This document shows positions 27,929-32,044 of a stretch of 64,000 nt of DNA, piece by piece. Position numbers and translations under genes: made by a program. Source of the stretch: an uncultured Verrucomicrobiae bacterium (GTDB lineage: Bacteria; Verrucomicrobiota; Verrucomicrobiia; Chthoniobacterales; UBA10450); the NCBI GenBank assembly GCA_963815455.1, contig CAWFGO010000003.1:320001-384000 (forward strand), in the 5' to 3' direction. Position 1 is the first letter of the stretch, and each line of letters opens with the position of its first letter. The notes beneath the pieces are model-generated. The model was not told the origin of the DNA and made no database searches. It worked only from the letters and a program-made list of their open reading frames with translations.

Positions 27929-27988
27929 TGTAGGGCGTTCCTGTGAAACGCCAACCAAATGGGTGGCGTCTGGCACAGACGCCCTACA
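27929..27988. repeat. GTAG REP doublet (REPIN-like)
   Basis: TGTAGGGCGTTCCTGTGAAACGCC ... GGCGTCTGGCACAGACGCCCTACA. Confidence 0.85.
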
Positions 27989-28009
27989 ATTGTTCCAGGC
28001 AATGATGAC

Positions 28010-29098
28010 ATGATCCGGCACCTCTACGTTCACATTCCGTTTTGCGCGCGCATCTGCCCTTACTGCGCTTTCTACAAGGATCTGCTCGATCGTTCCCAAA
28101 CCGGGCGGTTCTGCGAGGCCATCTTGCAGGAACTCAAATGCCAGGAACATCTCCGTCCATCGACAATTTATTTCGGCGGCGGAACCCCGACCGCGCTCAC
28201 GACTTCACAATTGGAATTTTTGCTCGGGGGCTTTCGCGAAATTCTTGATCTCTCGGTGTTGGTGGAATGGACCACCGAAGCAAATCCCGGGAGCGTTTCC
28301 GCGCACAAGGCCGCGGTGTTGCGCAAGCTCGGCGTGAATCGAATCAGCCTCGGCGTGCAATCGTGGGACGAAAATTTGCTCAAAGTCCTCGGGCGCGAAC
28401 ATAACGGGCCGCAGGCCGAGCAATCCTTCCGGATCCTGCGCGACGCCGGCTTTTCGAACATCAATATCGATCTCATGTTCGGGTTACCCGGCCAGACCAT
28501 CGAGCAATGGCGAACCACCCTCGAAAAAACGGTCGCCCTTCAGCCCGAGCACATTTCCGCCTACTGCCTCACTTACGAGGAGGACACGGAATTCTTCCTG
28601 CGACATGCCCGCGGCGAGTTCCGGCAGGACTCCGACGCCGATGCCGAATTTTTCGAGATGACGATGTCGATCCTGCAAGATGCCGGCTACGAGCACTACG
28701 AAATCTCGAATTACGCGCGACCCGGTTTCGCTTCGGCCCATAACCAGGCTTACTGGTCGGGCGAAGATTATTTGGGAATCGGCCCGAGCGCATTTTCCAC
28801 GCATGGCATGGAGCGATGGCAGAATATCTGCGATTATCGAGAATATGCCGATCGCGTTTTATCCGGGAAAGCGGCGATTGGATCGACCGAGAATCTGACC
28901 AGCGAAATGAAACGGGCCGAGCGAATCGCGCTCTTGCTACGCACCCGAAACGGCATTTCCGCAACGGAATTGCAAGGGGGCGCACTACAAACGGACGAGT
29001 TTCTCGCTCTGGGATTGATCCAAATATCCAACGGCAATGTCGTGCTGACACAAAAAGGAAAATGTCTCGCCGATTCCGTCACCGAACCGCTCCAGTAA
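28010..29098 (+). CDS. hemW: Radical SAM heme chaperone HemW
   Basis: LYVHIPFCARICPYCAF, YFGGGTP, EANP, RISLGVQS, YEISNYA, HNQAYW. Confidence 0.93.
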   Translation: MIRHLYVHIPFCARICPYCAFYKDLLDRSQTGRFCEAILQELKCQEHLRPSTIYFGGGTPTALTTSQLEFLLGGFREILDLSVLVEWTTEANPGSVSAHKAAVLRKLGVNRISLGVQSWDENLLKVLGREHNGPQAEQSFRILRDAGFSNINIDLMFGLPGQTIEQWRTTLEKTVALQPEHISAYCLTYEEDTEFFLRHARGEFRQDSDADAEFFEMTMSILQDAGYEHYEISNYARPGFASAHNQAYWSGEDYLGIGPSAFSTHGMERWQNICDYREYADRVLSGKAAIGSTENLTSEMKRAERIALLLRTRNGISATELQGGALQTDEFLALGLIQISNGNVVLTQKGKCLADSVTEPLQ

Positions 29099-29136
29099 AT
29101 CTCCCAAACGTCTCTCGATTTTCAGATAAAATTCAA

Positions 29137-29174
29137 GTGCGATATTTTATTGCACGTGCAACAAAATATTGCAC
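29137..29174. repeat. 38-bp AT-rich quasi-palindrome, left boundary of the PaaX-like cassette
   Basis: GTGCGATATTTTATTGCAC|GTGCAACAAAATATTGCAC, 17/19 arm complementarity. Confidence 0.9.
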
Positions 29175-29194
29175 GACGGAGAACTGGTCCCACC

Positions 29195-29980
29195 CTAACC
29201 GAGTCGAAAAGTGCGAAGCTGCCGCCCAGCTTTTCCCAGCCCTTTCACCCGTTCTTTCCATGCCTTCTGCCCTAGGTAGCCAGCCGGCAACAAACAGGAC
29301 GGCAGTAACGGGTCAATCGTAAACCCCGCCATCCAGGCCTCGCGTTCGGCCCTCCCCCAACGCAACAACGCTTTTGCCGCCCCTTCGCCAACCAATGCGC
29401 CGTCCGGACGTGTCGCCAAGATTTTCAGGTATTGATCATAGCGGCGATTGATACGTTCGAAGTCCCAACCGCCGGCAACAATTTGCGCATCCGATTCGCC
29501 CGCACATGGCCGTGCTTCCATAACGACCAGCGATTCCACGTCAATGCTGGCACCACCGAAAATGCCCCGTTCCTCATCCAATGGATCAGGGGTGATCCAA
29601 ACGCTGTGTTGCAAACAACCAAAACCCTTCCCTCGCAAATACCGCCTGAGCTGCTCACGCTGGACGTTGTGCTTTGTCGGTACGTCAAAGAGCACCACCC
29701 GCCACTTTCCATCCCAGGACCGGGCCCACCGTTCCATAGGATCGCGTCCGCCCAAAACATGCACGCGCCCCTGCGCGCTCAATCGATACAAGCGGTCCTT
29801 CCTGGAACCGCCTCGTCGGTCCAGGAATTTTTCTCTCTCCAAAGCCGCGAGCTGTCGCATGAAGCCGTTGCGATAGGCCCAGCTTTCGAAAGAATCCGTT
29901 ACGCTACGAAAGCCAGGACGCATCAGCTGATCCGCGGTCCAGAGAAGATGGTACAAAAACTCCTCCGTTTTAGGGTGCAT
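29195..29980 (-). CDS. PaaX-like protein (wHTH-like N-terminus, Cas2-like centre, PaaX C-terminal domain)
   Basis: YRLSAQG, WDGKWRVVLFDVP, LRRYLRGKGFGCLQHSVWITP, WDFERIN, DPLLPSCLLPAGYLG. Confidence 0.85.
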   Translation of the reverse strand: MHPKTEEFLYHLLWTADQLMRPGFRSVTDSFESWAYRNGFMRQLAALEREKFLDRRGGSRKDRLYRLSAQGRVHVLGGRDPMERWARSWDGKWRVVLFDVPTKHNVQREQLRRYLRGKGFGCLQHSVWITPDPLDEERGIFGGASIDVESLVVMEARPCAGESDAQIVAGGWDFERINRRYDQYLKILATRPDGALVGEGAAKALLRWGRAEREAWMAGFTIDPLLPSCLLPAGYLGQKAWKERVKGLGKAGRQLRTFRLG

Positions 29981-30007
29981 GTCTCAGTGGTTTATAGCGA
30001 GAAGAGA

Positions 30008-30045
30008 TTGCAACTTTTTGTTGCACATGCAATAAAATTACGACC
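30008..30045. repeat. Inverted partner palindrome, right boundary of the PaaX-like cassette
   Basis: TTGCAACTTTTTGTTGCACATGCAATAAAAT; its reverse complement matches the 29144-29173 core at 27/30 nt. Confidence 0.9.
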
Positions 30046-30060
30046 ACGATTGCAGACGGG

Positions 30061-30774
30061 TTACTCCACGGCGCCGTAGCGGCGTTGTCTTCGTCCGTAT
30101 TCTTCCACGGCGGCGAGCAAATCCTTTTTGGTGAAATCGGGCCAGAGCTTCGCCGTTACGTACATTTCGGTGTAGGAAAGCTGCCAGAGAAGAAAATTCG
30201 ACAGACGCATTTCGCCCGAGGTGCGGATGAGCAAGTCGGGATCGGGATAGTACCGCGTGTAAAGATGTTTGCTGAACATCTCGACGTCGATCATTCCTTT
30301 GTCGATATGACCGAGCTCGATGGCGCGCAGCAGACTCTTGATGCCATCGATAATCTCGAGCCGCCCGCCATAGCTGAGCGCAAGAACCAAGGTGAGTCCG
30401 GTATTCTTTGACGTTTGCTCGATCGTCTTGTGAAGTTGTTCCTGGCAACTCTTGGGAAGATCTGTCAATCGACCGATCGCCTGGAGACGAACGTTTTTGT
30501 CGAGTAATTCCGGCGTTTTCTCCTTCAGGAATTTTTCAAGCAGCCGCATCAGGGCGAACACTTCGCTCTTCGGCCGGCTCCAATTTTCGGCGGAGAAGGC
30601 GTAGAGCGTCAGGTATTCGATCTTCAATTCGCCACAACCTTCCACGCATTCGCGGACGGCCTGGGCGCCTTGTTCGTGGCCCTTGATTCGGGGCAGGCCG
30701 CGGCCCTTGGCCCATCGGCCGTTGCCGTCCATGATGATGGCGACATGACGGGGAACCGACTTGAGCGGAGCCAT
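30061..30774 (-). CDS. uppS: Undecaprenyl diphosphate synthase
   Basis: PRHVAIIMDGNGRWA, LYAFSAENWSRP, DLLIRTSGEMRLSNFLLWQ, RRYG. Confidence 0.97.
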   Translation of the reverse strand: MAPLKSVPRHVAIIMDGNGRWAKGRGLPRIKGHEQGAQAVRECVEGCGELKIEYLTLYAFSAENWSRPKSEVFALMRLLEKFLKEKTPELLDKNVRLQAIGRLTDLPKSCQEQLHKTIEQTSKNTGLTLVLALSYGGRLEIIDGIKSLLRAIELGHIDKGMIDVEMFSKHLYTRYYPDPDLLIRTSGEMRLSNFLLWQLSYTEMYVTAKLWPDFTKKDLLAAVEEYGRRQRRYGAVE

Positions 30775-30775
30775 G

Positions 30776-32044
30776 CTAGAGGACAATGGTCTGGGCCCGG
30801 CCCGGGCCGACGCTGACGATCGACAATTTCGCCCCGGTGAGTCCGGCAATATATTTCACGTAATCTCTTGCGGCTGAAGGAAGTTGCGAAAATTTGCGCG
30901 CCGATTGCGTAGATTGATTCCAGCCCCGCATCTCGTTGTAAATCGGCTCGCAATTCTCCAGCTGAGTTGCATCGGAGGGCGGGACAGCCAGGCGTTTCCC
31001 GTTCAGCCTATACGCTACGCAGACGCGAATCGGATCGAGATCGTCCAGTCCATCCAGGTTCGTGATGGCCAACTCGTCGATCCCATTAATCATCGCCGAA
31101 TAATGCGTCGCCACGGCGTCGAACCAGCCGCAGCGCCGGGCCCGGCCGGTTGTCGCGCCAAACTCGCGGCCCAGGCCGTGCAGCATTTCGGAGACTTGTC
31201 GATCCTCGGTTGGCAGCGGTCCCTCGCCTACCCGGGTGGTATAAGCTTTCATCACGCCCATCACGCGGTCCATTCGATGCGGCGGCACGCCTGTGCCGGT
31301 GCAGGCGCCGCCCGCCGTGGTGTTGGATGAAGTGACATAGGGATAGGTGCCGTGATCGATATCGAGAAACGTGCCCTGGGCGCCTTCGAAGAGAATGCCT
31401 TTCTTGCGCTCGATGGCGCGATGAAGATAAACCACCGTGTTCGCCACGAACGGGCGCAATTTTTTCCCGGCGGCGAGATAGCTCTCGTTCACATCGCGAA
31501 AATTGATCGGTCGCGCCCCGAGCGCCTGCAGGATGCTGTTGTTCTCGGTAATCTTGGCCTGCAATTTTTTCGAGAACAGAATCGGCTGCATCAGGTCGGA
31601 GACGCGCAAGCCGGTGCGCGCGGCCTTATCGCCGTAGGCCGGACCGATCCCGCGTTTGGTCGTGCCGATTTTGGCGCGGCCTTTCCGCAGCTCGCGCTGT
31701 TCGTCCAGCAGCCGGTGGTAAGGCAGAACCAGATGCGCGCAGTCGCTGAGCAAAAGGTTCTTGTCGATCTTGATCCCGAGCTTGCGCAACCCTTCGATCT
31801 CCGCCACGAGCGCGATCGGATCGACCACCACGCCGTTGCCGATCACGCAAATCTTTCCGCGCCGAAGAATGCCAGACGGAATGAGATGCAGAACATATTT
31901 GTTGCCACGGTGAATGACGGTGTGGCCGGCATTGTTTCCGCCCTGGCTGCGCACCACCACGTCGGCCCCGGCGGTGAGGACATCGATAATCTTCCCTTTT
32001 CCTTCATCGCCCCATTGCGCGCCGACCAGGATTGTGTTCGCCAT
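30776..32044 (-). CDS. purA: Adenylosuccinate synthetase
   Basis: GAQWGDEGKGK, GGNNAGHT, FEGAQG, GTYPYVTSS, GATTGRARRCGW. Confidence 0.98.
   Translation of the reverse strand: MANTILVGAQWGDEGKGKIIDVLTAGADVVVRSQGGNNAGHTVIHRGNKYVLHLIPSGILRRGKICVIGNGVVVDPIALVAEIEGLRKLGIKIDKNLLLSDCAHLVLPYHRLLDEQRELRKGRAKIGTTKRGIGPAYGDKAARTGLRVSDLMQPILFSKKLQAKITENNSILQALGARPINFRDVNESYLAAGKKLRPFVANTVVYLHRAIERKKGILFEGAQGTFLDIDHGTYPYVTSSNTTAGGACTGTGVPPHRMDRVMGVMKAYTTRVGEGPLPTEDRQVSEMLHGLGREFGATTGRARRCGWFDAVATHYSAMINGIDELAITNLDGLDDLDPIRVCVAYRLNGKRLAVPPSDATQLENCEPIYNEMRGWNQSTQSARKFSQLPSAARDYVKYIAGLTGAKLSIVSVGPGRAQTIVL

Follow-up and report, generated by a model that had tools for sequence, protein, structure and literature searches.

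The 261-aa PaaX/Cas2-like gene located between hemW and uppS of this uncultured Verrucomicrobiae bacterium, together with the two palindromes that flank it, constitutes a mobile unit, as judged by comparing genomes: related copies have unrelated flanks, the ends of the unit are sharp, alleles are swapped, solo palindromes have been inserted into host DNA, and the unit is absent from the corresponding position in relatives. A self-contained single-gene mobile unit, as proposed in the initial annotation of the 64,000-nucleotide stretch of DNA analysed here (the window), is well supported.

The insert between hemW and uppS

In the window, hemW (27959..29098, plus strand; TIGR00539 match over the cut-off) and uppS (30061..30849, minus strand; TIGR00055 match over the cut-off) are convergent, and the 261-aa gene (29195..29980, minus strand) fills the gap between them. 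The gene is intact and is the only one in the element. It is bracketed by a downstream palindrome of 38 bp, the D site (29137..29174, dyad at 29155/29156, core CACGTG), and an upstream palindrome, the U site (30008..30045, dyad at 30026/30027, core CATGTG on the gene strand), which are positioned 20 and 27–28 nt from the gene ends, within the 20–30 nt given in the initial annotation. The segments 29144–29173 and 30009–30038 form an inverted repeat with 27 of 30 bases identical, as had been claimed. The best match in 200 shuffles of both gap ends was 20/30, and the next-best match of the repeat sequence across the 3.6-Mb genome was 21/30, which rules out the genome-wide site of a global regulator. 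Both sites had been described as palindromes of ~38 bp; this holds for the D site, in which 17 of 19 positions pair, but not for the U site, which pairs at just 10 of 19 positions over 38 bp and consists of a ~22-bp palindrome and a decayed outer arm. The tandem 19-bp boxes noticed earlier are limited to the site variant of the window and do not extend to the family.

The D site is likely the binding and cutting site, with its outer edge forming the left end of the element; this assignment, made from the sequence, matches the family boundary 17–18 bp from the dyad. The additional 38 nt beyond the D site (29099..29136) are absent from the hemW-uppS gap of a same-genus genome, which is 8 nt long compared with 962 nt here. 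The U dyad is 46 nt from the start codon and 871 bp from the D dyad, compared with usually 53 nt and ~860 bp in close relatives. The segment 29981–30007 combines a 46-nt spacing with the lack of a promoter in a sigma-70 scan of the window gap; the window copy may be poorly expressed. It looks old, judging from the decayed outer arm, the short promoter spacing, and the lack of close solo copies. The gene has been under purifying selection, with dN/dS of 0.12–0.13 when compared with its paralogue and one relative, and 0.12–0.19 across nine gene pairs. The C-terminus of hemW (29075–29098) reads SVTEPLQ in the window and SVAEAF(V/I/L), of equal length, in most relatives, and the last hemW codons may have been altered together with the insertion.

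The unit of ~0.9 kb, comprising the gene and the two palindromes, is missing from the hemW-uppS gap of relatives. hemW adjoins uppS in 19 of 22 same-family genomes, and the gene is present there in none of the 19, which provides the empty junction that the initial annotation had suggested looking for. The unpublished genomes G015 and G008 are among the 19, and G003 is among the other three; when they are left out, 17 of 19 genomes keep hemW next to uppS, and all 17 are without the insert. The gene was detected in 17 of 300 genomes of the family, in 12 of which it is full-length and unbroken and in five broken, and in 20 of 400 genomes of the phylum. Stable synteny, named beforehand as evidence against mobility, was not seen: the gene is non-syntenic and patchy across the family. 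Empty alleles at the hemW-uppS junction, the mutS gap, and the mutL gap hold no palindrome, which leaves the idea of a solo palindrome as the empty allele unsupported. In relatives, other inserts of ~0.8–0.9 kb are located in the hemW-uppS gap, at L133 (G017) and in contigs of runs X1 and X2; this gap may be prone to insertion.

Protein fold, family and proposed site recognition

The protein is composed of an N-terminal winged-helix domain (residues ~1–75; 29756..29980, minus strand), a Cas2/VapD-like ferredoxin domain (residues 87–165; 29486..29722, minus strand), which contains the predicted dimer interface, and a PaaX_C-like C-terminal helical domain with a DPxLP motif (29213..29467, minus strand). 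The C-terminal domain is absent from short Patescibacteria members, and is therefore not needed for the core function. The AlphaFold model has a pLDDT of 88.5 and a fold like those of PaaX and Rv0674 (Foldseek E 2e-8; VIA Z 12.9–13.4); the model, this fold match, and covariation define the winged-helix domain, and the middle domain structurally matches Cas2/VapD. The central Cas2-like domain is over the cut-off of Pfam PaaX_M (E 3e-18), and the scores for the PaaX equivalog TIGR02277 and Cas2 TIGR01573 are 59 bits versus a cut-off of 265 and 17.7 bits versus a cut-off of 24.5, respectively.

The Cas2/VapD-like domain contains Asp99 (29684–29686), Arg108, Gln124 (29609–29611), and Ser126 (29603–29605); both the aspartate, in the sequence VLFDVP, and the Q124-x-S126-V-W motif are present as had been pointed out. 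Among 117 palindrome-flanked proteins, Asp99 and Ser126 are found in all 117, Gln124 in all but one, and Arg108 in nearly all. In an independent 113-row alignment, Gln124 and Arg108 are invariant, and Asp99 and Ser126 are conserved in at least 90% of rows. The Patescibacteria hits were collected by a peptide pattern covering residues 89–96, the invariance of which is artefactual there; Asp99, Gln124, and Ser126 are outside the patterns. The Asp/Gln/Ser set is fixed in flanked members only, and the residues at positions 99/124/126 are N/S/G in Bacillaceae PaaX, E/A/S in E. coli PaaX, and S/R/G in Rv0674. Asp99 and the Q-x-S turn correspond to the catalytic positions of Cas2/VapD, according to the accessible text of PMC10491678. 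The Cas2 aspartate is not always needed, as integration was unaffected by the substitution E9A in E. coli Cas2 in the available part of PMC13034035.

Modelling predicts a homodimer. The dimer model passes with a score of 0.47 (best control 0.00), at least 66% of contacts common to the runs, and a pLDDT of at least 69; the score mark was attained in 20 of 30 solved pairs and in one of 23 single chains. The modelled interface includes residues 97–99 and 123–127, which are positioned at the axis. The pass may be due to the likeness of the model to solved PaaX/Cas2 dimers.

Beyond the lack of paa and cas genes reported for the window, searches of the whole 90%-complete genome identified no PaaA or PaaC (control positive in 4/14) and no Cas1 (control positive in 7/14). 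Among the Pfam and NCBIfam families, the protein matches only PaaX_M, PaaX_C, and Cas2, with no match to HUH/Tyr or GIY-YIG domains, and there is no match to a DDE family. The alignments contain neither an invariant His pair nor an invariant Tyr common to the Verrucomicrobiota and Patescibacteria groups. An anti-phage system was considered and rejected, as PADLOC gave weak Cas2 matches only.

Homologues were searched for paired palindromes, as the initial annotation had recommended, using a score with a threshold of 46 of 68 that was fixed alongside the null in one script and not tuned later; 15 of 194 loci were scoreless because of short flanks or the lack of a stop codon. The window locus scores 53 of 68. 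Paired sites were found at 72/72 close metagenomic loci, 28/37 Verrucomicrobiota genome loci, where three of the misses are truncated genes, and 52/67 loci from Patescibacteria and others, compared with 0/3 true PaaX loci (Bacillaceae) and 5/600 random ORFs. The palindromes are 34–46 bp long and have locus-specific sequences; although these vary, a central C-N4-G is kept in 223 of 234 sites. The orientation of the palindrome pairs over 117 loci is inverted in five, direct in 17, and tied in 95. A 67% identical paralogue in the same genome, L002 (G000:C1:106936–107836), is located beside eno and has its own better-preserved palindrome pair, which differs from that of the window; L002 is missing at that place in G001. 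Homology of at least the E<=0.001 level takes in 3,064 clusters at 50% identity, true PaaX included. A protein atlas search returned PaaX_M clusters only, and a search of viral contigs with the family alignment found no relative. One homologue, P0211 (646 aa), has ~286 extra N-terminal residues and is possibly a fusion. Many close metagenomic loci have a short palindromic repeat, unrelated to the sites, immediately beyond the downstream site, namely L153, L155, L156, L158, L165–L167, and L170, and at L003 (G022), 882–1176 from the U dyad, there is a third site after ~15-bp tandem repeats and a half-site.

From the covariation of proteins and sites we infer, fairly firmly, that each protein reads the variant of the site found at its own locus; the winged helices would recognize the outer arms and a loop and helix of the Cas2-like domain the inner 7 bp. 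The recognition would span ~36–40 bp, like the operator of PaaX, which binds a 39-bp inverted repeat and represses its own promoter (PMC9493321, accessible text). Residues 102, 109, 113, and 125 of the Cas2-like domain, located beside Asp99, Gln124, and Ser126, covary with the inner positions of the site, and the outer positions covary mostly with winged-helix residues. The top covarying columns are 102 for site position 2 and 109 for position 4, separately in 68 Verrucomicrobiota loci and in 49 other loci. When reduced to independent tree pairs, residue 113 with site position 7 gives ~5.4 pairs in the expected direction versus 0.1 and residue 109 with position 4 gives ~5.5 versus 0 (median p 0.06); residue 102 with position 2 is represented by three pairs only, and residue 109 with position 5 (A with Glu) and residue 122 with position 1 are unsupported in such pairs. 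After phylogenetic correction, the covariation is suggestive of a residue-to-base code. Arm mismatches of the G-T and A-C types occur at ratios of 60:54 and 68:63, and the lack of a G-T bias on either strand favours recognition of a duplex over that of a hairpin or RNA. At site positions +/-2, the bases are complementary and vary together with residue 102; conservation ends symmetrically at the sites, with no one-sided foot or tag.

Mobility of the unit and dispersal of its palindromes

Elements with 85–93% identity are found in unrelated flanks. Both flanks are unrelated in 100 of 151 pairs of elements that are at least 85% identical (24 loci; the pairs are not independent), and flank identity falls to background 17–18 bp outside each dyad, which corresponds to the outer edges of the palindromes. 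The 77 close loci belong to 32 flank contexts, one of which accounts for 17 loci; that one lineage keeps the element at this single site is a point against mobility. At the shared site, flanks are mostly ~90–100% identical, with alleles down to 60–88% in many intervals, and the swap tracts begin in or near the U site and end 50–100 nt beyond the D site. One locus pair remains identical through the flank and the outer arm to within 5 bp of the dyad, and a new core is present in all four arms. Tails of old genes are located in register just before the palindrome at 5 of 46 loci, with scores of 47–116 compared with a null maximum of 31, and gene heads at 0 of 47. Further site-tail-site pieces lie downstream, and several share one ancestor; the tail-remnant loci and locus pairs are non-independent. 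An identical element at two sites was not found, the best pair being 92.7% identical. The 77 assembled loci include no inverted allele at shared sites, and the inverted site orientation is that of a minority (5/117), which leaves the invertible unit that the initial annotation had offered as an alternative without support. Plain autoregulation, against which it had argued from an operator downstream of the stop codon, is likewise not supported. Of the five elements from genus g8, four can be assigned to the mutS gap from the flanks on both sides, and the fifth (G568) is placed there by the mutS flank and a separate contig. The gap after mutS contains different element variants in two genera (L283–L287, L306, L453), and a second site is common to two variants (L003 and L456).

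Palindromes of the paralogue type were detected in nine of 151 family genomes, and the reversed control never occurred. Two genomes have 18 and 17 copies, and the genome of the window has six, which include a doublet 170 bp apart (G000:C3:387110–387318) and solos at C7:4437, C1:77187, and C3:630126. The doublet occupies an insert of 390 nt that separates mutL from the following gene, whereas in G001 these two genes almost touch; the spacing of doublets is 123–170 bp. One of the copies lies inside a pgeF-like gene, in a loop longer by 3 codons that G001 shares and 13 other orthologues (two of them unpublished) lack; given this loop, the idea that the palindrome rewrote host DNA without a change in length is not supported. 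The window's own site variant has no close solo copy in its genome. The genome also contains a putatively RAYT-like ORF, named from a motif (L232, G000:C3:385721–386143), and an abundant unrelated ~30-bp REP-like repeat family, one copy of which is beside the doublet.

The full gene is present in five of 26 genomes of genus g8, and these five carry the highest numbers of solo copies; G474, G522, G565, and G570 have a few palindromes, and the gene was undetected in them. In G494, a perfect 42-bp palindrome and 9 nt (+51 nt) are inserted in frame inside a coding gene and are absent in 4/4 congeners. Two further solos are accompanied by 95 and 218 additional bases, and one is a clean 45-bp indel, which is not polarised, as remnants occur at that site in G474 and G553. 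Target duplication is limited to a possible 2 bp at two solos. The surroundings of 69 solo loci are convergent in 14 cases, divergent in three, tandem in 15, and undetermined in 37 (p 0.013, orthologues included). In 15 orthologous solo pairs, which overlap and two of which have ambiguous orientation, the central two bases are 60% identical, the next base out 97%, and the flanks 87%. The arms of genus g8 solos are no more alike than the arms of different sites, and copying between arms is therefore not general. The explanation of solos as copies of a 5'-truncated tail and palindrome was rejected because a tail-like run of at least 8 is present in just one of 71 sites.

Proposed mechanism, alternatives and related systems

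The unit is probably a selfish mobile element, the predicted homodimer of which would bind the duplex palindrome and likely nick or cut its centre, with host repair spreading the unit and the solos. In the proposed sequence of events, the dimer binds its own double-stranded palindrome, and Asp99, Gln124, and Ser126 at the dimer axis are predicted to cut at the invariant C-N4-G centre. The cut half-site, homologous to every other half-site, would then enter host repair; this homology would result in re-insertion at the site of an older copy, arm-to-arm copying, and allele replacement with co-conversion of 0–120 flanking bases. Host repair would also spread solo palindromes, and binding to the U site probably represses the gene's own promoter as well. 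The weakest step is the first entry of a palindrome into naive DNA, as simple homing into a pre-existing site fails for the first arrival because empty alleles hold no palindrome. Two points speak against cutting: in Cas2 this aspartate is sometimes unnecessary or not involved in cutting, and of the three positions, two are still occupied by Glu and Ser in E. coli PaaX. The mechanism gives no account of the survival of the tails, rather than the heads, of old copies.

The same layout of a gene between its own palindromes, with solos, doublets, and co-evolution, is found in RAYT/REP and Ssn/NTS systems (PMC2817692 and PMC11893778, as far as accessible), and the protein might similarly recognize a single-stranded hairpin and nick beside it, moving by peel-and-paste or acting on incoming ssDNA. 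The spacing of the doublets resembles that of REP dimers, the C-G pair of C-N4-G could close a four-base loop, and in Verrucomicrobiota the most frequent two-by-two split consists of self-symmetric changes within one site (50 versus 22 and 13). We nevertheless consider hairpin recognition unlikely, given the absence of a wobble-pair bias on either strand, the complementary positions +/-2 that covary with residue 102, the lack of a conserved one-sided foot, the two-fold winged-helix dimer, which suits duplex DNA, and the lack of HUH/Tyr or GIY-YIG domains. It is quite improbable that the protein is a non-catalytic self-repressor, the sites of which are operators, possibly looped, in a cassette that host recombination or other enzymes would transfer passively. 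The closest folds are indeed PaaX and Rv0674, PaaX represses itself by binding a 39-bp inverted repeat (PMC9493321, in its accessible part), the U site is at a fixed distance from the promoter (53 nt in most loci), and inheritance is stable in one lineage. However, such an element would regulate itself alone, its sites are inserted DNA, with one inside a coding gene and a preference for convergent gaps, and its ends are sharp at the palindromes; furthermore, the residues at the catalytic positions are fixed in flanked members only, and the distribution is patchy, with the gene in 17 of 300 family genomes and broken in five.

A site-specific recombinase acting through a covalent intermediate, for which Ser126 is the sole universal candidate nucleophile, could excise a circle with one palindrome and integrate it at another palindrome. 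The tandem site-gene-site-tail-site arrangements, the invariance of Ser126, the predominance of direct repeats in Patescibacteria (48 versus 7), and the observation that the two sites of a locus never have two different symmetric cores at positions 1–3 (0/117) are consistent with such an enzyme. It is very unlikely in our view, because empty alleles are without a palindrome, replacement tracts extend beyond the sites, no inversions occur although symmetric sites would permit them, and the serine is also present in Cas2 and in E. coli PaaX (PMC10491678, accessible text). Inversion of the segment between inverted sites, which the window copy and three genus g8 copies possess, is extremely improbable as a switch: the promoter region and the gene are wholly inside the segment, so that flipping would switch nothing, most loci have symmetric or direct sites, and none of the 77 loci has an inverted allele.

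PaaX (PDB 8a39, 3l09; Rv0674 3kfw) shares with the protein described here its three-domain fold, a similar operator span, and plausible self-repression. The differences are the lack of paa genes, the score far below the equivalog cut-off, the 32 flank contexts, and the absence of flanking pairs (0/3) and the Asp/Gln/Ser set from true PaaX. A further hallmark of PaaX is its release from DNA by phenylacetyl-CoA. Homing endonucleases have a long recognition site and replace alleles with co-conversion of the flanks; a homing gene, on inserting, disrupts its own recognition site, and its enzyme cleaves the empty allele, whereas here the filled allele has two intact sites and the empty allele has none. 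In contrast to insertion sequences and MITEs, a split between inner and outer arms is the least frequent pattern (13 and 7), and there is no DDE match. CRISPR Cas2 is a stand-alone protein of ~90 aa with Cas1 as its partner, whereas the Cas2/VapD-like domain here is fused to a winged helix within 261 aa and has no Cas1, array, or antitoxin. Cas2, VapD, and BPSL1038 share the ferredoxin fold, the Q-x-S turn, and a pair of strand-1 aspartates located at the dimer axis (PMC10491678, accessible text), but the protein here appears specific for its own flanks, and the accessible text of the same source does not describe such specificity for Cas2/VapD.

REPtrons are similar in having a single gene between two cognate palindromes, gene-repeat co-evolution, and solo, doublet, and in-gene copies (available text of PMC2817692 and PMC3733652). 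Nevertheless, RAYT is an HUH/tyrosine IS200-like protein, whereas the protein here combines a winged helix with the Cas2/VapD fold, and REPs carry a one-sided GTAG/CGTC tag, whereas the sites here are loop-less, two-fold symmetric, and tag-less, with a fixed C-N4-G. The copies here number from a few to ~20–30 per genome, and the window's variant is without a close solo. The Ssn/NTS/SRM system is likewise built around a gene for a small nuclease flanked by its own palindromic repeats, with numerous cognate pairs, repeats that are dispersed, and a proposed mobile origin, but Ssn is a monomer of the GIY-YIG type, and its cleavage is restricted to directional hairpins of single-stranded DNA (both from the accessible part of PMC11893778); the protein here is unrelated and a predicted dimer, and neither a hairpin nor a strand bias is seen at its sites. 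In a 2026 survey of the paa pathway, paaX was seldom found outside its cluster, and Verrucomicrobia and Patescibacteria do not appear in the accessible main text (PMC13186573). A literature search, the reach of which ended at subscription papers and supplements, found no description of the element, and a prior description is possible.

The element does not qualify as PaaX, CRISPR-Cas2, RAYT/REP, or Ssn, and of the known families compared, it lacks at least one defining trait of each, the invertible switch aside; if the protein is non-catalytic or hairpin-specific, the element would instead be a variant of the REPtron/Ssn layout. More tentatively, and with a chance that we place a little short of even, a Cas2-fold protein alone, without Cas1, a transposase, or a known recombinase, may drive a widespread class of mobile elements. 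This class would consist of hundreds of duplex endonucleases or recombinases with long sites (34–46 bp) and a readable residue-to-base code, which write palindromes into new DNA, and it would be a mobile relative linking Cas2/VapD, palindromic repeats, and PaaX, the last as a tamed non-cutting offshoot.

To our knowledge, mobile elements are classed by a few enzyme chemistries, namely DDE, HUH, tyrosine and serine recombinases, and Cas1, and a mobiliser with the Cas2/VapD fold would, if confirmed, add one more. The substrate of each protein is written on both sides of its gene, which allows direct assays of cognate pairs and of swaps in specificity. The long-standing question of how the Cas2 active site acts on a defined substrate becomes testable. 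Rare-cutting enzymes with 34–46-bp sites could serve as tools. If the proposal is true, it would account for the many genes of Verrucomicrobiota and Patescibacteria that are annotated as orphan 'PaaX' or 'Cas2', as well as a class of dispersed palindromes.
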